Counted from the stretch's first letter, positions 2,136-37,518 are shown. The stretch: 38,785 bases of DNA from an uncultured archaeon (GCA_964362395.1 CAYIER010000002.1:1-38785), one strand, 5' to 3'. Notes: generated by a model from the letters alone, not told the origin. Numbers and translations are program-made.

Positions 2136-2272
2136 CGCCCGCAAAATCAGGCGATGCCAACCGCAAAACCGGTTGACGCTGTTTGTCCCTTCTTTGACGG
2201 GACAGTCCCAGTGAAATTGGGACAAATTCGCCAACAGAATTTGCCGTTGCTTTTGTCCCGCCAAAGCGGAAC
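2136..2272. repeat. Mosaic hairpin element, copy A (six consecutive short hairpins between L24e and ndk)
   Basis: Hairpins: cgcccg-caaaat-caggcg, caaccg-caaaac-cggttg, gtcccttc-ttt-gacgggac, gtccca-gtgaaat-tgggac, aaattc-gccaaca-gaattt, gtcccgc-caaa-gcggaac. Collinear with copy J. Confidence 0.8.
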
Positions 2273-2288
2273 CACTTTGCACAAAATT

Positions 2289-2495
2289 TTATTTTGTCTT
2301 TTCACCTTTTTTCATTATTGCCTTGACCTTGTGGTGCGCTGCAGTCCACTTGACTTTCTGCGGAGACCTTTCAAGCTCAAGCAAATTTTTTTCGCACTTT
2401 CTGGAGCAGAAATAAAAAATCGTTCCGTCCTTTTTTGCAAAAATTTTTCCGGTTCCTCTTTCAATTCCTGACCCGCAAAACGAACAATTAACCAT
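2289..2495 (-). CDS. rpl24e: 50S ribosomal protein L24e
   Basis: CSFCGSGIERGTG...FCSRKCEKN zinc-ribbon signature, in the conserved L7Ae-S28e-L24e-ndk synteny. Confidence 0.9.
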   Translation of the reverse strand: MVNCSFCGSGIERGTGKIFAKKDGTIFYFCSRKCEKNLLELERSPQKVKWTAAHHKVKAIMKKGEKTK

Positions 2496-3100: not shown

Positions 3101-3134
3101 ATGCTTTTACCTCCAAAAAATTTTATCATCGGTA

Positions 3135-3210
3135 CGCCGGCAAATTCCGGCGACAAATTTGTCCCGTCTGCGACGGGACTTCCATGCACCAACAAATAAT
3201 ACTCATTGGC
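3135..3210. repeat. Mosaic hairpin element, copy B (upstream leader region of L7Ae)
   Basis: cgccgg-caaatt-ccggcg, then acaaattt, then gtcccgtc-tgc-gacgggac. A 26-nt block tttgtcccgtctgcgacgggacttcc is identical to copy E. Confidence 0.75.
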
Positions 3211-3350
3211 CTTTTAGCTTCAAAAACAAAATCGACTAAAAAATCGATTATTTCAAAAGGGGGCCAATATATATAAAATTCCCATCACAAGCCTTAAAAG
3301 GCTATTTTCGGGGTTTTAGACCAAAAAACCAGCTTTTGACTTAGATCTGC

Positions 3351-5021
3351 TTATTTATGTGCAAACACGCATTTTATCCTGTTTGGGGAGATTTCTTCCG
3401 CGCGCGCATAGCCGAATTTTTCAAAGTACAAAACATCGCCCTCGTTTAGGTCGCCATTGTACTGCGTTATGCCAAGCATTTTTTTGCCGTCATCCATCAG
3501 GATTTCCACGTCAACGCTCTCAATCACCCAGCGAAGAATCTTTTTCCTTTCCCCGCTGCCAGGCTCATGGGTGCCCGCAAATTTTCCGGACGCAAAAAAA
3601 CCGCTTTTTTCAAGCAAATTCACATTCAGCGCTTTTTTTAGCCGAAAAACCGAACCAATTTTTACAGAATTAATTTCACTTTTTTCAACAAAAAAACTCT
3701 GGCTCCCCGCGCTAATTCCTATCCCGTGCGCCTCCATTTTCGGCGTGAACTGCACCGACAACTCAACCGGTTCGGTCAATAGTTCCGCTGGCACCGCTTT
3801 TTCCAGCAGTTCACCGCGATTGAGGTTCGCAAGCCTTGCAAACTCTATCGACGAGTCGTTTGTTTTAATCCCCAAATCAAGCACTGCCTTCTTGAGTGCC
3901 TGCGGCACAAATCCCCTTCTGCGCAGCGCGCGGATTGTCCCAAGCCGCGGGTCATCCCAGCCCGAGTAAATTCCTTTTTCGATTCCTTCCTTTATTTTCG
4001 AGGTGCTCAAAACCATTTTGCCCAATTTAATGCGCCCGAAATGAATTGAGTGCGGGTATGCCCAGCCAAAATACTCGTACAAAAATTTTTGTTTTGTCAT
4101 GTTTTGTTCGTGTTCTTGCCCGCGGATAATCAGTGTTACACCAAGCTCGTGGTCATCAATCGCTGACGCAAAATTGTACGACGGCCAGACATGAACATCC
4201 TTAACTTTTGGGTTTGGGTGCTCGACCTTGTCCACGATTTTTGCAGCCCACCAGTCGCGCACGCTCGGGTCAGGGTGCGACAAATCGGTTTTTATCCGAA
4301 GTACGGCAGAGCCCTCTTTTAATTCGTGGATGATCATTTTGTTGAAGCGCTCCATCTGCGAGTCGGAATTTTTTTCCCTGCACGGGCACGCCTTTTTTTT
4401 ACCGATTAGCTTTCTCCACTTTTCTGGCTCGCACTCGCACACATACGCGTGGCCCATTGAAATGGTTTTTCTCATAAAATCATGGTAAATTGAAAGGCGG
4501 TCTGACGCAAAAAAAACCTCTGCCGGCGGGCATCCAAGCCAGTTCAGGTCTTCAATATAAATTTCTTTTGCGTTTGCAATCGGCTTTTTCACCTTGGGAT
4601 CGGTGTCGTCAAATCGCAGGAAAAACTTTCCCAAATATTTTTTTGCATACTCAAAGCTCAGGATTGCCGCACGCGCGTTCCCCAAATGGAACGGGCCATT
4701 TGGATTTGGCGCAAAACGCGTCACAACCATGTCCTTTTTTGCCCACTCAAAATCAGGGAGACCAATCGGTTTTTCGGGCGGCTTTAATTCATAAGAGCCC
4801 TCAAATTTTTCAAACTCTTTTTCTATCCCGCCAAAATCCATTGCATTGACTTTTTTGACTGCCAAAGAAATGACCGGCATAGCCGCCTTCAAATCCAGTG
4901 CCTTGTCAAGCGCCTTCATTTTGCCGACAACAGCGCCAACATCCGCATGCCCCTCGTGCAAATAAGCGTTCTTTATTGCGTAGCGATAAGCGTCGTTTTC
5001 CAAATCCAAGCAAAACACCAA
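3351..5021 (-). CDS. gltX: Glutamyl-tRNA synthetase (archaeal type)
   Basis: RFAPNPNGPFHLGNARAA (HIGH-type motif) in a class I Glx-RS core, with VLSTSK in the KMSKS position. Confidence 0.9.
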   Translation of the reverse strand: MVFCLDLENDAYRYAIKNAYLHEGHADVGAVVGKMKALDKALDLKAAMPVISLAVKKVNAMDFGGIEKEFEKFEGSYELKPPEKPIGLPDFEWAKKDMVVTRFAPNPNGPFHLGNARAAILSFEYAKKYLGKFFLRFDDTDPKVKKPIANAKEIYIEDLNWLGCPPAEVFFASDRLSIYHDFMRKTISMGHAYVCECEPEKWRKLIGKKKACPCREKNSDSQMERFNKMIIHELKEGSAVLRIKTDLSHPDPSVRDWWAAKIVDKVEHPNPKVKDVHVWPSYNFASAIDDHELGVTLIIRGQEHEQNMTKQKFLYEYFGWAYPHSIHFGRIKLGKMVLSTSKIKEGIEKGIYSGWDDPRLGTIRALRRRGFVPQALKKAVLDLGIKTNDSSIEFARLANLNRGELLEKAVPAELLTEPVELSVQFTPKMEAHGIGISAGSQSFFVEKSEINSVKIGSVFRLKKALNVNLLEKSGFFASGKFAGTHEPGSGERKKILRWVIESVDVEILMDDGKKMLGITQYNGDLNEGDVLYFEKFGYARAEEISPNRIKCVFAHK

Positions 5022-5118
5022 AAAATAAGTAATAGAAAAAGGCTTTAAAAGTGCAGGGAAAACATTTAAATATAATTTGTATTACAAAGTATTACGGGTG
5101 GTTTTTTTGGTTGCTGGC

Positions 5119-5394
5119 GTGATTACTTTGCGGCTTGAAGGCAAGGACAAGCAAAAGGTCTGGGATTTGGCAAAGAAAAAAAGGGAAACAAAGTCAAACC
5201 TCATGAGAAAAGCCCTGCTTTCTTACATTGAAAAAGAAACAGAATTGGACGAAATAAAAGAAATTGTTGCCGTAAAATTTGTGGAAGGAAAAATCTCTTT
5301 TGATGAACTAGTCAGAATACTTGGCTTTGATGAAGCAAAAAAAGTGGCCTTCTTTGCGGACATTGCCGAAAAGTCTTTCCAAGAAGGGATTTGA
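5119..5394 (+). CDS. Ribbon-helix-helix (CopG-like) putative antitoxin
   Basis: ITLRLEGKDKQKVWDLAKKKRETKSNLMRKALLSYIEKE fits a strand-helix-helix pattern. The stop abuts the next ATG (TGAATG). The GTG start at 5119 is inferred; the ORF track starts at 5077 with TTG. Confidence 0.5.
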   Translation: MITLRLEGKDKQKVWDLAKKKRETKSNLMRKALLSYIEKETELDEIKEIVAVKFVEGKISFDELVRILGFDEAKKVAFFADIAEKSFQEGI

Positions 5395-5922
5395 ATGAAA
5401 AAAGCCGTGGCAGACACTTCGGCCCTCATTTCAATTGCATTAAGCGGGAAGCTTCCTGAAGTCGTGGAAAATATCGGTTTATTTGCCCCAAAAGCGGTCA
5501 AGCTTGAAATTGCAGAAATGGCCGGATATGATGACATTGAAGGGGGCGCTGCAAAAAACATTTTAAATTTCATAAAAAACAAAAAAATCAGTTTAATAGA
5601 AATAAAAAACGAAAAAAATGCACGCGATTTGACCGGCAAAAGCATTGACCAAGGGGAAGCAGAATGCTTTGAGCTTGCAGCAGAAGAAAAAATCGGGACA
5701 ATCCTGATGGACGACGTGAATGCAGCATACCGCATAACCGGCCTTGCAAAACCCAAAAACATTTCAATAAAAATATCCACCGCAGCAATAGTTGAATTGA
5801 TTAAACAGGAAAAACTGGCAAAAAAACAAGGCATTTTTGCCCTACAAAAAATGGTCAAAAACAGGCAATGGGAAAAAGGAATACTGGAATTCCTGATAAA
5901 AAAATACGTAAAAGAAATTTAG
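5395..5922 (+). CDS. PIN-like nucleic-acid-binding protein (DUF3368-like), putative toxin partner
   Basis: N-terminal AVADTSALISIA, central DQGEAECFELAAEE and ILMDDVNA resemble the D...GE...DD pattern of the DUF3368 PIN-like family. Confidence 0.55.
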   Translation: MKKAVADTSALISIALSGKLPEVVENIGLFAPKAVKLEIAEMAGYDDIEGGAAKNILNFIKNKKISLIEIKNEKNARDLTGKSIDQGEAECFELAAEEKIGTILMDDVNAAYRITGLAKPKNISIKISTAAIVELIKQEKLAKKQGIFALQKMVKNRQWEKGILEFLIKKYVKEI

Positions 5923-6171
5923 GCAACTGACTTCAACAGTTAATTATTTATTTGATGCTTGACAGTCTATTTTTATAATGCCAATTCACAAAGGTCTGAG
6001 AGAAACAGAGGCTGGATTTTTAAATGAACGCAGGAAGATGGCTTTACAAAAATCTGTTAATAGACTGATAAAAGATTTTGAAACAGGAGTGCCCCCCCTG
6101 TAAGAGAAAAAATTCTTAAAAGTTATTTAAGGAACAAAACTAATGCTGATAGAAGATTTGTTTTTGAAGAA

Positions 6172-6411
6172 TTGGCAATCAGGAATTTGTTTCACAATAG
6201 GATTGTATCTCAAATAGATGAAACACTTGCACTTGCAAGAAGAGATAACCCTAAACTTGCAGGTGTTATTTATTTTGGGAGTTTTTCCAGAGGGAAAAAA
6301 TCCCCGCGAGACCTTGATTTGATTTTATTGTTTGGGGCAAACACAACAAAAACAGAGGTCAAACAAGGAATTGCCTCATTTCACGCCATAATAAAACAGG
6401 AATACAAATAG
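6172..6411 (+). CDS. Nucleotidyltransferase-domain protein (MNT-like); the frame appears split from an upstream 41-aa ORF at a C7 run
   Basis: GSFSRGKKSPRDLDLILLF matches the GS-x9-DxD NTase motif. The frame is open back to 6082. The ATG ORF 5978-6103 ends just after the C7 run at 6092-6098. Confidence 0.55.
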   Translation: MAIRNLFHNRIVSQIDETLALARRDNPKLAGVIYFGSFSRGKKSPRDLDLILLFGANTTKTEVKQGIASFHAIIKQEYK

Positions 6412-6490
6412 AGCCACACACTATTCAAACAGTTTCAACTTCGAAAAATAACTTAACGAGTAAATTGGTTAATCTTGCATTTGCAAGTGC

Positions 6491-6500
6491 TATTTATAAA
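6491..6500 (+). promoter_or_regulatory. TATA-like box about 30 nt upstream of 93-nt repeat copy 1
   Basis: TATTTATAAA. An archaeal TATA-to-TSS spacing would put the start near the first base of the repeat (6532). Confidence 0.3.
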
Positions 6501-6531
6501 TCGCCAAGACCGTTTTTCAGAAAGTGGCAGA

Positions 6532-6624
6532 TATAGCAAACTGCTTATATTTTTGAACATTTTATGGCAGTTTGCTATATGCAAAGAGCAATTAAAAGTT
6601 CAATTATTTATGCTCTTTGCTATA
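6532..6624 (+). repeat. 93-nt double-hairpin repeat, copy 1
   Basis: tatagcaaactgc-N24-gcagtttgctata, then tgcaaagagc-N-gctctttgctata. 92/93 identical to 31684-31776. Confidence 0.9.
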
Positions 6625-6795
6625 GTTACACAAGACCAGGCAGTCAGACATCTTTACGAAAAAATTTTAGAAGCAATTGAAAAATCTGGACGAAAAGCAA
6701 CACTAAAAAGAATGGACACACTGCATCGTGTAAATATTCAAAGATTCAGGGAACAAATTGAATACCTAAAAAGACAAATAATGCAATCTATTTAA
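6610..6795 (+). CDS. Small hypothetical helical protein (61 aa)
   Basis: Its ATG lies inside the second hairpin of repeat copy 1. The N-terminal part of ORF-track entry 6475-6795 is repeat sequence, read in a different frame at copy 2. Confidence 0.35.
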   Translation: MLFAIVTQDQAVRHLYEKILEAIEKSGRKATLKRMDTLHRVNIQRFREQIEYLKRQIMQSI

Positions 6796-6854
6796 ACTCA
6801 ATCGGTACTGTAGCCCAGATTTTGTGTCACCGCGGCAGTCAAAGTGAATTAGCC

Positions 6855-9812: not shown

Positions 9813-9868
9813 TTTTTTTATCACTTTGAATTTTTGCTTTTTTTATTGTAATCCAAATTTATATTATC

Positions 9869-9970
9869 GCCCCGTCTTCAGACGGGACACATCCGCGGTG
9901 TAACAAATTGGCAAAGAAAATATAATGATTATTCAACTGCCAATTTGTTAAAACGGACGCAAACGTTTTT
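9869..9970. repeat. Mosaic hairpin element, copy C (between tRNA-Leu and L18e)
   Basis: gccccgtc-ttca-gacgggac, then a long hairpin taacaaattggca-N24-tgccaatttgtta (13 bp perfect), then aaaacg-N8-cgtttt. Confidence 0.8.
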
Positions 9971-9984
9971 TTTATTTTTTTGAT

Positions 9985-10090
9985 TGCAGGGGGGAGGATT
10001 CGAACCCCCGAAGGCACTGAGCCACAGGATCGCTCATCTTATTTTATTGCATCTTAAGTCCTGCCCATTAAACCGCTTTGGTACCCCTGC
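9985..10090 (-). tRNA. tRNA-Leu (anticodon UAA), class II, with a ~22-nt intron at the canonical 37/38 position; no encoded CCA
   Basis: Minus strand: acceptor GCAGGGG/CCCCTGC plus A73, 3-bp D stem, anticodon stem CAGGA/TCCTG with loop CTTAAGA interrupted by an insert, long variable arm GGC-TCAGT-GCC, T arm GGGGG-TTCGAAT-CCTCC. Confidence 0.8.
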
Positions 10091-17819: not shown

Positions 17820-17922
17820 CCTGCAAAATCACGCCAACAAATTGGCAATTGAACAAATTCTAGAATATTCTTTCGCCAATTTGTTGCGACACTTTCCTGC
17901 CATCCCGCTTCGCTCAATGGCA
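17818..17922. repeat. Mosaic hairpin element, copy D (between L32e and L19e)
   Basis: A degenerate caaaat-loop hairpin, then the long hairpin aacaaattggc-N28-gccaatttgtt, then gcgacactttcc, then tgccat-N-aatggca. Confidence 0.8.
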
Positions 17923-17942
17923 CTTCAAAAATCAAATTTTCA

Positions 17943-24215: not shown

Positions 24216-24623
24216 TCATCCCCGCGCCGTGATTGCAGTGCTTGACTTTGTTGCGCCGATCCCTGCCTTTCCGTGCGACAGCCTCTTTCGGGTCAAAACA
24301 AATTCGCCCAAATAGTGGCCAAGCATTTTATCCATGACCGACATAACCTGGAATTCCTTCCCATTATAAACGGCAAACTTCAGCCCGACCATCTTTGGCA
24401 GAACCGGGAAATCCCTCAAATGCGTCCGAATGATTTTTGGCTCATGCCCCTGCTGCTTTTGCAAAAACGCGCTGCCGATTGCCCCCAAAAAACCCTTGCT
24501 GTAATTTCCCCTAAGCAAAGACCTCTTTATCCTTGAGCCTGCAATCACTGCAAACTGTGCCTCGCTCATTGCAACAAGCTCTTCCATTGTTTTTCCGCGA
24601 AAAGTAAATTCTTTTTTTACCAT
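24216..24623 (-). CDS. rps19: 30S ribosomal protein S19
   Basis: IRTH.RD..VLP.MVG....VYNGKEF..V.....M.GHYLGEF..TRK...HG motif. Confidence 0.95.
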   Translation of the reverse strand: MVKKEFTFRGKTMEELVAMSEAQFAVIAGSRIKRSLLRGNYSKGFLGAIGSAFLQKQQGHEPKIIRTHLRDFPVLPKMVGLKFAVYNGKEFQVMSVMDKMLGHYLGEFVLTRKRLSHGKAGIGATKSSTAITARG

Positions 24624-24633
24624 AACATCACAA

Positions 24634-24750
24634 CAACCGCAAAATCGGCACCAAATTGACAGTTGAACAATTCTGGATATTTTCTTTTGCCAATTCGGTG
24701 TGACACTTTTGTCCCGTCTGCGACGGGACTTCCGGCAAATAATTCATTGC
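24634..24750. repeat. Mosaic hairpin element, copy E (between L2 and S19)
   Basis: A truncated caaaat-loop hairpin, then the long hairpin caccaaattgaca-N26-tgccaattcggtg, then gtgacactttt, then gtcccgtc-tgc-gacgggac. About 85% identical to copy F over ~95 nt. Confidence 0.85.
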
Positions 24751-25492: not shown

Positions 25493-25966
25493 TTACAGCA
25501 CCCCAAGCTTTGTCGCAATCTCGTCCGCACGGAACTGCCTGCTGATTTTAACAAACGCCCTCTTCCTTCCCTTTGTGTCCCGCAAAATATTCACCTTGTC
25601 AACCTTTATTTTATACAAACCCTCAACCGCATCCTTCACTTCAGATTTTGACGCCCCGCCATTCACAACAAACACCAGTTTGTTCTCAGACTCAATCATG
25701 CCCACCGACTTTTCCGTAATCAACGGGTGAAGAATGGTTTCAAATGCCTTGAGTGCAACCGTTTTGTCTGCTGGAAGCTCTCCCGTAAATTCCTTTACAA
25801 CAACACTTTTTTTTGCGCCACCTTTGGCCGCTTTTTTTTCAGCAATCTTTGAAGCGATTTTTTTCTTCGCCACAATTTTTTTTGCCACTTTCTGCACTTT
25901 GTGCGCCGCAGTTTTTTTTGCTGCAGCCTTTTTCTGTGTGGGTTTTTTTGCTTTCTGCTTAACCAT
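25493..25966 (-). CDS. rpl23: 50S ribosomal protein L23 with ~70-aa Lys/Ala-rich N-terminal extension
   Basis: The C-terminal 85 aa match L23 (ILHPLITEKS....E..NKLVFVV...A.K.E.K.AVE.LY..KV..VN). The N-terminus is low-complexity KKAAAKK. Confidence 0.9.
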   Translation of the reverse strand: MVKQKAKKPTQKKAAAKKTAAHKVQKVAKKIVAKKKIASKIAEKKAAKGGAKKSVVVKEFTGELPADKTVALKAFETILHPLITEKSVGMIESENKLVFVVNGGASKSEVKDAVEGLYKIKVDKVNILRDTKGRKRAFVKISRQFRADEIATKLGVL

Positions 25967-26005: not shown

Positions 26006-26086
26006 TACCGCCTGCAAAATCAGGCGACACTTTTTCCCCATTCTTCGAATGGGGATTCTGCGCACAAATAAAAAACATCTCCATCA
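26006..26086. repeat. Mosaic hairpin element, copy H (between L4 and L23)
   Basis: cgcctg-caaaat-caggcg (26009-26026), then acacttttt, then ccccatt-cttcg-aatgggg (26036-26054). Bracketed by the 32-nt direct repeat. Confidence 0.85.
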
Positions 26087-26890
26087 CCATTTTCCCTCTA
26101 AAGCCTTTATCGCGTCCTCGCTCCACAAAGTGAGCCTTCCCGGGACAGCGCCCGGCGCAAGGAGCTTTGCATTGACGTTTTTCACATTCACAACCTCTAC
26201 ACCCTCAATGTTTCGCGCCGCCTTAAAAATCTTCGCCGAATCACTCACAACAATCAAAACACTCTTTGCCTTCTTGTACCGCCTTCCCCTCTTCTTTCCC
26301 TTTCCAGCCCTTCTCTTCCGCGCAGCCTTTGCCCTATCAACATCCAAAATCAACGAAAGCCTCTCAAGCGCCAAAACCACATTTTTTGTCCTGTCAAGCG
26401 CCTCGATTTTTTTCTCAACAATAACTGGAAAAACAAGTTTGTCCGAAATTTTGTGCCCCCTCTTTCGCACCAGTTCCGCAACCGCTGTCGCCGCAATCGC
26501 GCTTCTTGTCGCCTTCTGCTTTTCCTTGCGGTTAATCTTTTCCTTAAGGATTTTTTCAACCTTTGGCGGATGTGCCGCCGGGCCACCAACCGCCCAAGGA
26601 ACAAGCGCTACTTTTCCCGAAGAAATATATCTCCTGTTCCGCATCCTTGGCAGCCGTGCCTTTTCAATGTTGATTGTCCTGTGCATCTGCGGCTTTCGCC
26701 TTGCACCAATATAGCGCGCAGTGTAATTCCTTCCCGCGCTCTTCTTTGTTCCCTTTGGCTGCATTGCCGCGCTCTCAATTGACAACACGGCCCGCTTTAT
26801 CAGGTTTCCATCAATCGGCTCGCTGAAAACACCCGGCAGTTCAATTTCCCGGACTTTCTGCCCCTCAATGCTCAACACGCTTGCTTTCAT
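26084..26890 (-). CDS. rpl4: 50S ribosomal protein L4
   Basis: Typical archaeal L4 (...GRNYTARYIGARR..Q......GGPAAHPPK...) located between L3 and L23. Confidence 0.95.
   Translation of the reverse strand: MKASVLSIEGQKVREIELPGVFSEPIDGNLIKRAVLSIESAAMQPKGTKKSAGRNYTARYIGARRKPQMHRTINIEKARLPRMRNRRYISSGKVALVPWAVGGPAAHPPKVEKILKEKINRKEKQKATRSAIAATAVAELVRKRGHKISDKLVFPVIVEKKIEALDRTKNVVLALERLSLILDVDRAKAARKRRAGKGKKRGRRYKKAKSVLIVVSDSAKIFKAARNIEGVEVVNVKNVNAKLLAPGAVPGRLTLWSEDAIKALEGKW
26087..26118. repeat. Direct repeat, distal copy: the functional 3' end of L4 (..EDAIKALEGKW-TGA)
   Basis: See 25974-26005. Confidence 0.85.
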
Positions 26891-26928: not shown

Positions 26929-27017
26929 CGGCCGCGTGCAAAATCACGCGACACTTTTGTGCCATTTCGCTTTGCTCAATGGCAATGTCATTGCTCGCCA
27001 ATAATTTGTGACTGTTC
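26929..27017. repeat. Mosaic hairpin element, copy G (between L3 and L4)
   Basis: cgcgtg-caaaat-cacgcg (26933-26950), then acacttttg, then tgccatt-tcgctttgctc-aatggca (26960-26984). Bracketed by the 21-nt direct repeat. Confidence 0.85.
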
Positions 27018-28167
27018 ATTTTTTCCCGCCGCCCATTGTAGCTTCCTTTATTTCATCCGCAACGCTTTTCTTTTCAACCTTTGCCTCTTTCTTTACAACA
27101 ATCCGCTGTGCCCGGACTTCGTCTCCTGCAACCGCTTCCTTCTCCTTCCTCTTTACCCCAAGAACAGAAAGCTCCGCGACATTAAACAAACCCTTGTAAC
27201 CAACCCTGATCGGGTCCCTTAAAGCAACAGCCCTCTTTACCGGCCCAGGCGTGCTTCCGCCAAGCAAAATAAACTGGTTCTTTATCACACCATAGCCTTC
27301 AAAACCGTGCGGCACATTTATTTCCGCAGGATTATTTGAAATCCTCAAAAGCCTCTTGTTGAGTTCCGTCCTGGACTGATACCCCATCTGGCCAGGCCTT
27401 GCAACAAACCTCATAACCGTTGAAGGATTCCACGGCCCAATACTTCCAACAACCCTTCTCTTCTTTGCCTTTCGCCTGTGCATCTTTACACCAAACCTTT
27501 TGATGACACCGGTAAAGCCCTTTCCGGCATCCACTGCCTTCACGTCAACAAACTGTTTTTCCTCAAACACCTCGTTGACTGAAAGATCCTTGCCAAGCTT
27601 TTCCTTTGCAAACTTCCACTGGTCGGCAACGCTTCCGCCAACAAAAACCTCAAACACATCCGCCACCTTTTTCCCAAAACCAAGCAAACCCGGCCTAGTG
27701 CTGCACAAAAGCTTTACTTTAACGATTTTGTCAACCTGCTTTTCCAAATCAGAAACCGTAGCATAACTTTTTTCGCCCCCTTCTTTCCCGCCCTTTTTCT
27801 TATTGCTCTTTCTCTTAAAATCAGGGTGGCGCTTCCTGAAAAACTTGTCAGGCTTCTCAACAGTCGCTTCGCCCAAAACACGCAGCGCGCCCTGCTCTTT
27901 CGTATAAGCCCTAATGCCAAAAACAGACAGCGGAGGGCACTCAATAACCGTCAAAGGAATCACGACCTGTTGCCCAAAACTCGTGGCCTTCTCCTGCTTA
28001 TTAACCGCAACCGCATGAACCATCCCAGCCTTATAGCCGACAAAATTCAACGGCTTTGCTTTCTGCCTGGAAAGCACATTGTCTGACCTAAAAGTAGCCA
28101 GTTCCCTTGCAGCCCTCTTTCTTGGGTAAAATGCCAGTGAGCCAGACCTTGGCTTGTGCCGAGTCAT
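27016..28167 (-). CDS. rpl3: 50S ribosomal protein L3
   Basis: PR.GSLAFYPRKRA, F.GYKAGM.H and GKGF.GV.KR.G....RRK motifs. First gene of the L3-L4-L23-L2 cluster. Confidence 0.95.
   Translation of the reverse strand: MTRHKPRSGSLAFYPRKRAARELATFRSDNVLSRQKAKPLNFVGYKAGMVHAVAVNKQEKATSFGQQVVIPLTVIECPPLSVFGIRAYTKEQGALRVLGEATVEKPDKFFRKRHPDFKRKSNKKKGGKEGGEKSYATVSDLEKQVDKIVKVKLLCSTRPGLLGFGKKVADVFEVFVGGSVADQWKFAKEKLGKDLSVNEVFEEKQFVDVKAVDAGKGFTGVIKRFGVKMHRRKAKKRRVVGSIGPWNPSTVMRFVARPGQMGYQSRTELNKRLLRISNNPAEINVPHGFEGYGVIKNQFILLGGSTPGPVKRAVALRDPIRVGYKGLFNVAELSVLGVKRKEKEAVAGDEVRAQRIVVKKEAKVEKKSVADEIKEATMGGGKK
27018..27038. repeat. Direct repeat, distal copy: the functional 3' end of L3 (..ATMGGGKK-TGA)
   Basis: See 26908-26928. 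Confidence 0.85.
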
Positions 28168-28324
28168 TTACATACCACTTTCAAAAACCACTGAAAATGC
28201 ACACAGGCCGGCAAAACGCCAGCAAAAAAGGGGGGAACCTTTCAAAATGCTAAAAAAAGCCAAAAAACAGCTATTTTTTTTGCATTTATATCCTTAGAAG
28301 ATTTACTAAGGATACAGTGTGCTT

Positions 28325-28393
28325 CGCCGACAAAATTCGGCGGTGCTTTCCTGCCATTTCGCTTCGCTCAATGGCAATGCGCCTTGTAGGCGC
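28325..28393. repeat. Mosaic hairpin element, copy I (upstream of the L3 operon)
   Basis: cgccga-caaaat-tcggcg, then gtgctttcc, then tgccatt-tcgcttcgctc-aatggca, then gcgcct-tgt-aggcgc. Confidence 0.8.
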
Positions 28394-31447: not shown

Positions 31448-31542
31448 TGTATACAAATTGCGGCACACCAAGTATTTAAATGTTACTTTTTAACGAGAAT
31501 TAGTGAATTGTATGTAAATTGTATGTAAAATCCGGCTGCTTC

Positions 31543-31635
31543 AACCGCAAAATCGGCACCAAATTGACAGTTGAATAATTATGACTAATTTCTTTTGCCA
31601 ATTTGGTGTGGCGCTTTCACCTGCTAAAGCGGGAC
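31543..31635. repeat. Mosaic hairpin element, copy F (upstream of the surface protein gene)
   Basis: aaccgcaaaatcgg, then the long hairpin caccaaattgaca-N26-tgccaatttggtg, then a degenerate terminal hairpin. Close paralog of copy E. Confidence 0.85.
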
Positions 31636-31646
31636 TGCTAAAGGAG

Positions 31647-31658: not shown

Positions 31659-31683
31659 CGCCCAAAATGGCTGCGTGTGCATC

Positions 31684-31776
31684 TATAGCAAACTGCTTAT
31701 ATTTTTGAACATTTTATGGCAGTTTGCCATATGCAAAGAGCAATTAAAAGTTCAATTATTTATGCTCTTTGCTATA
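31684..31776 (+). repeat. 93-nt double-hairpin repeat, copy 2
   Basis: 92/93 identical to 6532-6624. The single difference is at 31728. Confidence 0.9.
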
Positions 31777-31816
31777 ATTTGCGGAGCCAATTTGTGGCAG
31801 CATTTTTTCAGTCATG

Positions 31817-33799: not shown

Positions 33800-33949
33800 T
33801 TTGCTTTTTCACCTCCCCTTGCACCGGAAACCCGGTGTGTCTCTTTAAATGGATTTTTAACCCACTTTCAACAAAAACTATCTGTGCAAACAATTAAAAC
33901 CATTAATCCCAATTTGGCTTCTTTGCATGGCTACCTTTGTGCAGATAGC

Positions 33950-34042
33950 TATAGCAAACTGCATTTGTTTTTGAACTATTGAGACAGTTTGCTATATGCA
34001 AAAAGCAATTAATTTGTTCAATTATCTATGCTCTTTGCTATA
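33950..34042 (+). repeat. 93-nt double-hairpin repeat, copy 3 (diverged, ~80% identical, same length)
   Basis: Shares the termini tatagcaaactg...ctctttgctata and both stems. Differences are concentrated in the loops. Confidence 0.8.
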
Positions 34043-34208
34043 TATAATTTCACACAAAAGGGCTCAAAACGCAAATTTTACAGACTGGCATTCAAATCAA
34101 TTGTTTCAAAAAAACGTTTCAACGGCGAAGGCAACCATTATTTTGAGCTATCAATCAATTCAATACCAGATATTGCCAAAATCGTAAATTTACCAAGATT
34201 ATTTTGAA

Positions 34209-34415
34209 ATGCCTATTGGGCAGGAAAAAACAATCAGTGAAAATTATGGCGGCATCTCCACAGTTGAACTCAAAAAAGGCATTCTTCAAAGCCGCTATGG
34301 CCTTGGAACAATTATTTTAACCAAAGGGGAAAACGCAATCTGGGTGATGAATATAGAGCGGTCGGACGAGGCATTCCTGAAAGTGAAGGAACTTGTTGAA
34401 AAAGCAAAGCACTAA
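34209..34415 (+). CDS. Small bacterial-PH-like (bPH/YdbS-type) domain protein
   Basis: ...RYGLGTIILTKGENAIWVMNIERSDEAFLKVKELV resembles the C-terminal strands and helix of bPH domains. Confidence 0.4.
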   Translation: MPIGQEKTISENYGGISTVELKKGILQSRYGLGTIILTKGENAIWVMNIERSDEAFLKVKELVEKAKH

Positions 34416-34503
34416 TTATGTTCAACAATTTCTTTCAATTTGGCTGCAAGCCTGTTAATATTTAATTCACTGAAAAAATCGAGATTTTCTGATTTGTCGT
34501 CCT

Positions 34504-34851
34504 TTAATCGCAAGGTAATCCTGCCAATAACCAACGGATGTGAGCCCGCAAAATTGTTTTTTTTAAAGATCTTATTTCATTAAATGGGATCTTGATTTTT
34601 TTCAGGAAAAAAATTTTTGAAATTTCAATCCGTGAACCGTTAATTGAATACCTTGAATAGCTCAAAACAACCCAGAGGACAATAAAAATGAACAACACGC
34701 CAAGCAGGGTTAAATTTTCCAGCAAAAAATCATATTTGGCCAAATAAAGCCCAACGCCATAAAATGCGGCATACAAAATTAAAATTACCGCAAAAAACGT
34801 GGTTTGCAATTTGTCCCACGAATAAACAACAAACTTTTCCATTTTGCTCAC
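34504..34851 (-). CDS. Membrane-anchored bPH-like protein; the reading frame appears broken at an A8 run and continues in another frame to 34412
   Basis: Two TM helices, then ...KIKIPFNEIRSLKK. After the homopolymer at 34557-34564 the alternative frame reads NNFAGSHPLVIGRITLRLKDDKSENLDFFSELNINRLAAKLKEIVEHN-stop. Confidence 0.5.
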   Translation of the reverse strand: MSKMEKFVVYSWDKLQTTFFAVILILYAAFYGVGLYLAKYDFLLENLTLLGVLFIFIVLWVVLSYSRYSINGSRIEISKIFFLKKIKIPFNEIRSLKKTILRAHIRWLLAGLPCD

Positions 34852-35023
34852 AGCCTGCCGTCAAATGCAGATTATAGCAAACCAAAAAAATAATTCCAAA
34901 AATTTTCATGGTTCCTTGCAAAATGCATGCATTTTGCGATGCCTCGCAGAGTTTCACTCTGCAAGGTGCTATCTATCAAACCACAAAATAAATGTAAAAT
35001 TTTATGTGGTTTGATATAATGCC

Positions 35024-35410
35024 TTAAAAATCAACCAGTTGTAGGTTGTCAATTTTTCCAAAATGCTTTTTATTCAAGGTAAAAAGCTTCTCGTTTTTTG
35101 CCAGGCAAATCCCTGCAATTGTTTCGTCATATTTTCCTATGGGGGTCCCTTTCTTCTTTTGCATTGCTTTTACTTGTACAACGTTGCTTAATTCCATTGA
35201 AGTGTAATCATAGATTTTAAATTTTTGCAGCATGAGTTTGCCTTTGTTGATAGAATCTTCCGTTGAAAAATATAGTCCGACTAAAAATTCTTCCGCATTC
35301 AAAATCGTGGTTGCAAGAGAATCAAATGTTTCAAGCCACTTGATTTTTTCAATTATTTTTTCATTGCCTTTGGAGAATGCAATTAAAACATCGGTGTCTA
35401 TGACAACCAT
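35024..35410 (-). CDS. vapC: PIN-domain toxin VapC
   Basis: VVIDTDVLI start, then conserved acidic positions (..NAEEF.., ..YDETIA..) and LFTLNKKHF. Overlaps the upstream antitoxin gene. Confidence 0.85.
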   Translation of the reverse strand: MVVIDTDVLIAFSKGNEKIIEKIKWLETFDSLATTILNAEEFLVGLYFSTEDSINKGKLMLQKFKIYDYTSMELSNVVQVKAMQKKKGTPIGKYDETIAGICLAKNEKLFTLNKKHFGKIDNLQLVDF

Positions 35411-35646
35411 AATTTATCAAGCCTTTTATCCCTTAATTTGTCAAGTTTATCTGTTTTTTTCCTGTAGCCTGTAATTGCATTTTCAACTTTTTTTGCTTCC
35501 CTTTCGGATAAAAAGCCTGCAAATTCCAAAATGCTTGTTTTCTCCTTGTCCGCAAGCCGCTCAAACAGGTCAGAAAAACTTTCTTCAGTTTTTTTTACTT
35601 TAACCAATTTATTATAAACTGTGTCTTTTATAGTCAGTGTTTTCAT
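35398..35646 (-). CDS. vapB: VapB-type antitoxin (archaeal UPF0330/COG1753-like)
   Basis: MKTLTIKDTVYNKLVKVKKTEESFSDLFERL pattern. 13-nt overlap with vapC. Confidence 0.75.
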   Translation of the reverse strand: MKTLTIKDTVYNKLVKVKKTEESFSDLFERLADKEKTSILEFAGFLSEREAKKVENAITGYRKKTDKLDKLRDKRLDKLWLS

Positions 35647-35744
35647 ATTTTTTCACAAAAACATCTGCCCATAAATGTATTTAAACATAATGTTTAAACA
35701 TTTCTCATTTTTTATAGTAATGCATGATTATTTGGCATATTGCC

Positions 35745-35875
35745 GCACCATAGAAGATGGTGCACGTATGCGTTGTAAACCAACCGCGAAATCGGTTGAC
35801 GCTTTAGTGTCCTCTTCGAGGACAGTCCCGCTGCAAGCGGGACAAATTCGTCGCCAGAATTTGCTGGCGGGCGCA
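35745..35875. repeat. Mosaic hairpin element, copy J (between archease and vapB); collinear with copy A
   Basis: Hairpins: gcaccat-agaag-atggtgc, caaccg-cgaaat-cggttg, gtcctc-ttc-gaggac, gtcccgc-tgcaa-gcgggac, aaattc-gtcgcca-gaattt (alternative fold cgccag-aatttg-ctggcg). Confidence 0.8.
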
Positions 35876-37342: not shown

Positions 37343-37366
37343 TTCCCAAAACCCTTGCGTGAGTTT

Positions 37367-37449
37367 TAACAAATTGGCAAAAGAAATCCCATAAATTATT
37401 CACTTGCCAATTTGTTACGCCGCATATATGCCCCGCCTGAAGGCGAGAC
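37367..37449. repeat. Mosaic hairpin element, copy K (between EF-1alpha and S10)
   Basis: Long hairpin taacaaattggcaa-N23-ttgccaatttgtta (14 bp perfect), then gccccgcc-tgaa-ggcgagac. Confidence 0.8.
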
Positions 37450-37518
37450 AATAATACCCCAATATATTATAATGGAATAAAAAAAATTTTTGGGAAAAAA
37501 CCCAAAATAGTAACAGCA

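Follow-up and report, generated by a model that had tools for sequence, protein, structure and literature searches.

Introduction

Repetitive extragenic palindromes (REPs), bacterial interspersed mosaic elements (BIMEs) and the inverted REP doublets known as REPINs are regarded as bacterial, as are their domesticated transposases. REPs are imperfect palindromes of 20-40 nt that fold into a stable stem-loop with an unpaired GTAG (or GTGG) tetranucleotide at its 5' foot. A genome with REPs usually carries more than 100 extragenic copies and a single-copy gene for a REP-associated tyrosine transposase (RAYT, a Y1 HUH enzyme) that is flanked by the repeats. The small hairpin repeats known in archaea are mostly MITEs, miniature transposable elements with inverted repeats, derived from insertion sequences (IS). 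Here we describe a family of hairpin repeats in 38,785 nt of DNA from an uncultured archaeon (GCA_964362395.1 CAYIER010000002.1:1-38785); this whole stretch is called the window, and all window coordinates count from its first letter. The analysis centres on two intergenic arrays, A (2158-2250) and J (35781-35869). In our reading, to which we assign a probability of roughly 0.6, both are head-to-head doublets of about 90 nt made from a REP-like unit, and they belong to a modular, REP/BIME/REPIN-like, non-autonomous family in a genus-level clade of groundwater Candidatus Iainarchaeota.

REPINs, the inverted doublets of REPs, act as a mobile unit (PMC3116915). A second bacterial superfamily, the REPs tagged with CGTC or TGTC, occurs mostly as head-to-head dimers and has no known dedicated transposase; it includes dRS3 of Neisseria and RPE of Rickettsia and has been described in five bacterial phyla only (PMC3733652, Di Nocera et al. 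2013).

Several independent assemblies from the 0.1-µm fraction of Hainich groundwater, well H51, contain sequence identical to that of the window. The nearest ribosomal L2 proteins are those of Candidatus Iainarchaeum/Diapherotrites metagenome-assembled genomes, with 73% identity to a genome from North California groundwater and 61% to AR10. Judged by sequence, the host is a Candidatus Iainarchaeota (DPANN) archaeon of the Hainich groundwater.

Anatomy of arrays A and J

A and J lie collinear on the same strand and are about 78% identical. Their local alignment scored 83, whereas 500 dinucleotide shuffles gave a mean of 14.1 (sd 2.1, maximum 26), and nowhere in the window does A have a better non-self match than J. 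Both arrays fold better than shuffled sequences on either strand, with z values of -3.65 to -5.15 under RNA parameters and of -3.3 to -5.5 under DNA parameters. Each half of an array is a unit of about 45 nt that consists of a hairpin, here termed HP1, an A-rich spacer and a small hairpin, and the two halves stand in opposite orientation. Within an array the halves share an identity of 0.69 (A) or 0.59 (J). Between the arrays the left units reach 0.78 and the right units 0.74, and these higher values indicate that A and J are the same heterodimer. The parts of the two doublets are as follows.

2158-2249: array A, head-to-head doublet of an L-type unit in reverse (2158-2203) and an R-type unit in forward orientation (2205-2249)
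2158-2175, minus strand: left small hairpin of A, CAACCG/CGGTTG, loop CAAAAC on the plus and GTTTTG on the minus strand
2185-2203, minus strand: left HP1 of A, GTCCCTTC-TTT-GACGGGAC, with one T.C mismatch
2205-2223, plus strand: right HP1 of A, GTCCCA-GTGAAAT-TGGGAC
2232-2249, plus strand: right small hairpin of A, CAACAG-AATTTG-CCGTTG, with one A.C mismatch and preceded by the spacer AAATTCGC
2136-2153 and 2255-2272: extra modules beside A, a solo small hairpin and a solo GTCCCGCC..GCGGAAC hairpin
35781-35869: array J, head-to-head doublet of an L-type unit in reverse (35781-35824) and an R-type unit in forward orientation (35825-35869)
35781-35798, minus strand: left small hairpin of J, CAACCG/CGGTTG, loop CGAAAT on the plus strand
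35808-35824, minus strand: left HP1 of J, TGTCCTC-TTC-GAGGACA
35825-35843, plus strand: right HP1 of J, GTCCCGCT-GCA-AGCGGGAC
35852-35869, plus strand: right small hairpin of J, CGCCAG-AATTTG-CTGGCG, preceded by the spacer AAATTCGT
35726-35780, plus strand: extra module beside J, like the 5' half of the Type III composites described below, with GATTATTTGG.., GCACCAT-AGAAG-ATGGTGC (35745-35763) and ACGTATGCGTTGT

A sequence-only reading of the window had taken A and J for collinear arrays of five to six hairpins. The collinearity stands, far above the shuffled controls, and so does the module order that it described: the small hairpin CAACCG-loop-CGGTTG, then ACGCT.T.., an HP1 hairpin, a GTCCC..GGGAC hairpin, AAATTCG.C and a second small hairpin. 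The number of hairpins had been set too high, as the shared collinear part comprises four; the flanking hairpins at 2136-2153 and 2255-2272 (A) and at 35745-35763 (J), further modules of the family, do not line up from one array to the other. The same reading had noted that individual stems differ and nevertheless remain paired. RNAalifold on A plus J returned 23 consensus pairs; changes on both sides preserve four of them, the very pairs that had been named. An AT-rich helix, CAAATTC...GAATTTG, is indeed found; it overlaps the GC-rich right small hairpin, and the two structures are thus mutually exclusive. The proposed formation of a cruciform suits A, which can fold as one long hairpin or cruciform, but not J, which folds as four separate hairpins. 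Imperfect symmetry over 30 nt is present, with terminal 6 nt that match in A (CAACCG/CAACGG) and differ in J (CAACCG vs CGCCAG). This inverted symmetry arises from two halves that are one 45-nt unit in opposite orientation. What had been read as terminal inverted repeats (TIRs) of about 30 nt, the termini of a unitary MITE, turned out to be this self-standing two-hairpin unit, which occurs alone at 3134-3180 and at 1466-1513 of another Hainich contig, L067, and elsewhere in combination.

The repeat family in the window

In general form, the unit has an HP1 of 7-8 bp (mostly GTCCC..GGGAC), an A-rich spacer that ends in (C/T)GTC, and a GC-rich hairpin of 6 bp with the loop AWTTTG. Its two stem-loops measure 17-21 nt, with folding z values of -3.3 to -5.8. 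The 38.8 kb of the window hold 11 arrays, namely A, J and nine other sites, and every one is intergenic. The motif GTCCC-N3-14-GGGAC was seen five times against 0.17 expected. A descriptor of the small hairpin matched nine times, always between genes, compared with 0.24 matches in shuffles and, across 900 kb of related genomes, 0.43 for each 38.8 kb.

Comparison of 11 small hairpins showed a conserved loop and a conserved 5' tag, while five of the six stem pairs were changed on both sides. The pairing of 98.5% in these hairpins is a circular figure, since pairing is part of the descriptor; the diversity of stems under one loop is not circular. The tag reads CGTC or TGTC in 8 of the 11 and CGCC, CATC or CACC in the remainder. 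GTAG never occurs at the 5' flank, which is (C/T)GTC, CGCC or CACC. The 6-bp stem starts with C-G, the loop has 6 nt and the tail is GG, GC or AA.

Three unit subtypes and three composite architectures were distinguished. Units occur in both orientations, arrays mix modules, and the identity from unit to unit ranges from 50 to 83%. In the Type II composites, a long hairpin is nested inside the small hairpin. Several of the arrays lie in a minus-strand run of small open reading frames (ORFs) that is arranged like a ribosomal-protein cluster. The labels L3, L4, L23 and S19 used for these ORFs follow archaeal operon order and ORF size only, whereas the label L2 (24770-25492) is backed by tblastn matches to the L2 proteins of relatives. 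The nine further sites and the long-hairpin module are listed below.

3134-3180, minus strand: single R-type unit upstream of L7Ae, 83% identical to the right unit of J (J_R)
26008-26056, minus strand: single Type I unit in the spacer of ORFs 26084-26890 (read as L4) and 25493-25966 (read as L23)
26932-26985, minus strand: single Type I unit in the spacer of ORFs 27016-28167 (read as L3) and 26084-26890 (read as L4), with the HP1 variant TGCCATTGAGC..GCGAAATGGCA
28324-28377, minus strand: single Type I unit upstream of ORF 27016-28167 (read as L3)
17820-17925, minus strand: Type II composite, a 45-nt long hairpin AACAAATTGGC..GCCAATTTGTT nested in a small hairpin
24634-24730, minus strand: Type II composite between L2 (24770-25492) and ORF 24216-24623 (read as S19)
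31542-31640, minus strand: Type II composite, with 89% identity over 76 nt to the copy at 24634
9858-9970, plus strand: Type III composite of TATTATCG, HP1, ACATCCGCGGTGT, a long hairpin and AAAACGGACGCAAACGTTTT, adjoining a tRNA gene
37348-37460, minus strand: Type III composite between aEF1A and S10, with the loop of its long hairpin flipped relative to the flanks
9904-9947, 17838-17883, 24652-24697, 31560-31605 and 37370-37414: 45-nt long-hairpin module with a stem of 11-13 bp, CAAATTGRC/GYCAATTYG

The loop of the long-hairpin module is AT-rich and contains TTCAAYT. Its flipped state in the copy at 37370-37414 is a small inversion within the hairpin. The Type III element at 9858-9970 was also considered as a small-RNA gene, given its TATA-like box, hairpin and T8 run; other Type III copies lack the T-run or are placed where a promoter would be needless.

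Insertion polymorphism between close relatives

The spacer between the genes for L24e and NDK measures 171 nt in the window and 6, 7 and 8 nt in the relatives L076, L077 and L079, in which NDK is 88%, 74% and 75% identical. Likewise, archease and vapB are separated by 238 nt in the window, but by 64 nt in L070 (archease 89% identical on the amino acid level) and 48 nt in L074 (77%), where the spacer consists of a conserved vapB operator palindrome only. Two inserted blocks account for these differences.

2138-2286: block of about 150 nt between L24e and NDK, with A and the solo hairpins 2136-2153 and 2255-2272
35700-35874: block of about 175 nt that separates the archease stop codon from the vapB operator palindrome and contains J and the Type-III-like half

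The block with A is placed within sequence that in L076 still codes for the 3' end of L24e, and a new stop codon (TAA) was created. L24e has 68 aa in the window, against 75 in L076 and 65 in L077 and L079 (window 2289-2300; L076 260-290). The palindrome TGTTTAAACAnnATGTTTAAA, located just upstream of vapB, is conserved at 35680-35698 in the window, at about 822-842 in L070 and at about 4775-4795 in L074, and is probably the operator or promoter of VapB. The block with J sits immediately upstream of it.

A relative of about 90% nucleotide identity, present in the groundwater runs X9 and X10, lacks A and the arrays at 9858, 17820 and 26008 and has 15, 22, 8 and 20 nt in their place; at the site of A, a contig of X10 joins 2140 to 2300 with the 15 nt between. 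In total, at least five arrays are missing at equivalent positions in this relative, which carries family modules at other sites. The array between L2 and S19 (24634-24730) was not counted as an empty site, as the relative shows 23 letters there against about 142 nt by contig coordinates. In L007, the locus with the closest L2 found (73% amino acid identity), no array separates the L2 gene and the ORFs labelled L3, L4 and L23, which abut one another or overlap.

The reverse situation was encountered as well. Relatives contain family modules where the window has none, namely downstream of vapC in L070 (1574-1592), after the dUTPase and GluRS genes in L077 (5838-5855 and 2434-2461) and upstream of L7Ae in L079 (241-270). 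Presence and absence thus run both ways, which indicates that the family is common to a narrow clade and its insertion sites are not. In 58 ribosomal-protein loci of more distant Iainarchaeota, no family motifs were detected. Several outgroups have empty sites, and insertion is therefore more parsimonious than repeated loss. On this comparison A and J are best described as insertions into otherwise very short spacers, and the same applies within ribosomal-protein operons.

Alignment to the empty sites revealed no target-site duplication (TSD) for A and only an ambiguous A-run for J. The right edge of the A insertion had suggested that the stems of the small hairpins were templated from the target flank; the edges of J gave no support to this idea, and it was dropped.

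Copies in other genomes and metagenomes

The exact pattern of the right-hand unit had zero matches in the GTDB species genomes, a collection that does not include the host genome. In metagenome contigs (241 million records) it was found in Hainich samples only, on L065, a strain variant of the window locus, and on L067, a new locus; three further matches, lying in unrelated sequence without hairpin context, were taken for chance. L067 carries three arrays, including one in which a Type II and an R-type unit follow each other as a direct tandem, and the single unit at 1466-1513. Other contigs from the same runs have J_R-like units with different flanking hairpins. In many contigs, modules that belong to different arrays of the window are joined, and this shows that more mosaics exist elsewhere. 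Beyond A and J, the unit, single or in composites, is present at nine intergenic window sites, at this further locus of the population and in close relatives. Three patterns compared with the viral contigs of IMG/VR matched only unrelated contigs without hairpin context and gave no sign of a viral or plasmid reservoir. Rfam 15, searched at gathering and at E-value thresholds, had no match on any array and recognised only the tRNA at 9985-10090.

Contig depth at a minimum of 85% identity showed A and J to be effectively unique, and the long-hairpin module to be in an excess of about 8-10x. Several metagenome contigs break off within or close beside arrays, and the repeats therefore fragment short-read assemblies of the lineage. 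L006 ends inside J, at a point that corresponds to window position 35806, and L007 ends 29 nt after L2, at a hairpin.

Comparison with described repeats

The archaeal family has much in common with the REP, BIME and REPIN elements that are mobilised by RAYT (TnpA-REP). Both consist of short GC-rich extragenic palindromes with a conserved unpaired tag by the stem, occur as single units, inverted doublets and mosaic clusters, and are found between co-directional genes within operons without TSD. Compensated stem variants and a doublet that can fold as one long hairpin, as in copy A, are also shared. Unlike the bacterial elements, the family resides in an archaeal host, and no RAYT-class enzyme has been reported from the Archaea (PMC6006769). 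The archaeal unit has two different hairpins and no GTAG (or GTGG) tag, its loop is the most conserved part and its stems are the most variable, and its copies are diverged, with few at high identity. Neither the window nor the fetched loci yielded a transposase gene associated with the repeats.

Closer in their tag are the CGTC/TGTC REPs. Most archaeal copies have (C/T)GTC immediately 5' of the small hairpin, the doublets A and J turn their tagged sides towards each other, and for neither group is a dedicated transposase known. The bacterial repeats, whose terminal tag can also be CCTC, have stems of 8-9 bp that begin with A/T pairs, loops of 4-5 nt and a CCA-like tail of 3 nt, in contrast to the 6 bp beginning with C-G and the 6-nt loop of the archaeal hairpin, where the final C of the tag may also be taken for the opening base of the stem.

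With archaeal and bacterial MITEs and with PATEs, the palindrome-associated elements derived from IS200/IS605 in Haloquadratum (PMC3119063), the family shares small size, lack of coding capacity, an abundance of hairpins, intergenic location, variability between strains and presumed mobilisation in trans. It differs in having no identified parent IS and no consistently conserved element ends, and its units recombine as modules and not as a single fixed element. Intrinsic terminators and mRNA-stabilising hairpins resemble it as stable GC-rich stem-loops downstream of genes. The archaeal repeats nevertheless form a family with common loops and spacers in both orientations and in arrays of two to six hairpins; the arrays are absent at equivalent sites in close relatives, and no consistent T-tract follows on the sense strand. 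Taken as a whole, the family does not show what defines bacterial GTAG-REPs, CGTC-REPs in their described form, or TIR-MITEs.

Weighing of alternative explanations

If the 90-nt doublet were a single element, a classical TIR-MITE, its imperfect repeats of about 30 nt would be bound by the DDE transposase of a longer IS elsewhere. The inverted-symmetric ends, the length of about 90 nt, the intergenic position, the presence or absence between relatives and the folding of copy A into one long hairpin would all suit such an element. Yet the supposed TIR is an independent unit that also stands alone and in other combinations, the outermost bases of J differ, and neither A nor J has a TSD. The longer autonomous element with the same ends that the sequence-only reading had envisaged was found neither in the window nor in the GTDB genomes, the 241 million metagenome records or IMG/VR. 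These points weaken the case for a TIR-MITE, which we consider unlikely. The label MITE-like that this reading had applied is apt for a dispersed, mobile-like element and goes no further, as no TSD was seen and no autonomous partner was found in the available sequence; the arrangement of A and J is closer to that of a REP doublet (REPIN) or BIME. Slightly less probable still is that the arrays are regulatory RNA or DNA structures of the host that arose in place (operon punctuation, 3'-end protection or processing, terminators or protein-binding palindromes) and resemble each other through convergent or concerted selection. Compensatory changes that keep stems paired, very stable folding, the co-orientation of most single units with flanking genes and the location of arrays between co-transcribed ribosomal-protein genes speak for such a role. 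However, in relatives of 88-90% identity the corresponding operon junctions lack the arrays and the genes abut, the doublets hold both orientations, some copies lie within a tRNA-like gene or in a divergent promoter region, and no Rfam family matched the arrays. Folding was better on the sense strand by -6.4 kcal/mol per 100 nt, compared with -5.1±5.1 in random coding windows; this bias equals the coding background and is thus uninformative on selection at the RNA level. G.T wobbles seemed, by eye, to fall on the minus strand, which a skew in composition could account for.

Recombination sites of a tyrosine recombinase, similar to integron attC or to Xer/dif, would likewise combine variable stems with a conserved structure and loop, and the only recombinase seen, a 399-aa gene product of the Phage_integrase family (tyrosine recombinase; L067, 1783-2982), is encoded beside an array cluster and a tRNA-like gene. 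Against this, the arrays lie between essential syntenic housekeeping genes and not between gene cassettes, there is no integrase gene in the window and no core of the GTTRRRY type, and an integrase gene next to a tRNA gene is more simply explained by an ordinary integrated element; we hold this origin to be very improbable. Hairpins are common downstream of genes, so a chance likeness or a set of ordinary, independent terminators had to be considered as well. With an A-J score more than 30 sd above the shuffles and motif counts at 20-40x expectation, chance is statistically excluded, and the arrays were reproduced in several independent assemblies; the probability left to this explanation is negligible. 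The sequence-only reading was accordingly right that A and J are more than simple terminators: they are copies of a dispersed element, rich in hairpins and with inverted symmetry, whose presence varies between close relatives.

The interpretation of A and J as doublets of a REP-like mobile unit has its own difficulties. The copies are diverged and, at a minimum of 85% identity, low in number, which does not resemble a recent burst. Full doublets number only two, both with inward-facing tags, compared with at least nine single or composite units. In the window, 9 of 11 single or composite units are co-oriented with genes, which could reflect selection at the RNA level. Loss of arrays in relatives is conceivable at individual sites, although several outgroups make insertion the more parsimonious account. 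Neither a transposase, HUH nor integrase gene is present among the window ORFs, and the fetched loci contain neither a transposase nor an HUH gene. Among 172 archaeal genomes, none was seen to encode a RAYT-class Y1 protein, and only classical IS200-type TnpA was found (PMC6006769).

Proposed mode of mobilisation

According to the REP-like interpretation, the units would be non-autonomous mobile DNA. A structure-specific enzyme acting in trans would probably copy or move them in the form of folded single-stranded hairpins. The HUH/Y1 class, with TnpA of IS200/IS605 and RAYT, offers a precedent for such an enzyme; as no mobilising gene was found, this step is inferred. A mechanism based on single-stranded hairpins would account for the lack of target-site duplications, for stems that drift through compensatory changes while loop and 5' tag stay constant, and for an inverted doublet that acts as a unit in the manner of REPINs. 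Once inserted, the arrays would probably be co-transcribed with the flanking genes, and their stable hairpins may affect the ends or the stability of mRNA, as those of bacterial REPs do. A role in RNA after insertion, such as protection of transcript ends or punctuation of operons, is plausible given the co-orientation of most units with the flanking genes.

Host genes and other elements in the window

The archaeal genes of the window include those for L7Ae, S28e, L24e, NDK, dUTPase, GluRS, RtcB, archease, aEF1A and S10. At the window edge, an ORF on the minus strand (190-996) encodes an intein splicing domain (Pfam Intein_splicing, E 5.5e-16), and in the relative L075 a LAGLIDADG gene adjoins RtcB. 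A tRNA gene was found next to one of the arrays:

9985-10090, minus strand: intron-containing tRNA (Rfam 45.1 bits, missed by ARAGORN), directly beside the Type III array at 9858-9970

A tRNA-like gene lies on L067 at 1511-1735. It resembles tRNA-Cys(GCA), has an anticodon loop broken by about 150 nt and was called neither by ARAGORN nor by Rfam. The interruption holds family modules, including TATTACCG-GTCCCGCC..GGCGGGAC-ACGTATGCGG. The Phage_integrase-family gene follows directly, which suggests an integrated element at the tRNA gene.

Two segments, at about 34180-35500 and 5010-6850, have almost no coverage in runs X4, X8, X9 and X10, and a contig of X9 jumps from 5008 to 6854. These strain-specific segments contain hypothetical genes, a putative membrane protein (34504-34851) and copies of a separate element of 101 nt. 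The latter consists of two 45-nt hairpins with the ends TATAGCAAA...TTTGCTATA and is present at 6527-6627, 31679-31779 (96% identical) and 33945-34045 (63%). It also occurs on L065 (2432-2497), the strain variant that has a copy after window position 3317. Its summed contig depth is about 90x the genome baseline in X1 and X4 and only about 3-4x in the relative of about 90% identity. Some contigs skip it (33952 to 34056 in X9, 6530 to 6622 in X4), and elsewhere it is frequently linked to GTCCCG hairpins or Type III modules. The 101-nt element looks like a high-copy, currently active MITE-like element.

Implications

The repeats explain why assemblies of these genomes break at intergenic sites, and their insertion polymorphisms are practical strain markers for groundwater populations. 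The host lineage is typically one of very small genomes. Diverse modular hairpin repeats have recently spread in this uncultured archaeon even into the spacers of ribosomal-protein operons, and they differ between populations that are only about 10% diverged. One can tentatively imagine a REPIN-like system that is DPANN's own, in which two-hairpin units would be recognised by structure and loop, not by the sequence of their stems, and copied as single-stranded DNA by an archaeal enzyme, and would be tolerated, or perhaps even used as transcript punctuation, in the ribosomal-protein operons of a reduced genome; we see this as a possible but doubtful extension of the REP-like interpretation. If the mobilising enzyme were identified, structure-specific transposition of single-stranded DNA, or the domestication of such an activity, would be extended to DPANN archaea.

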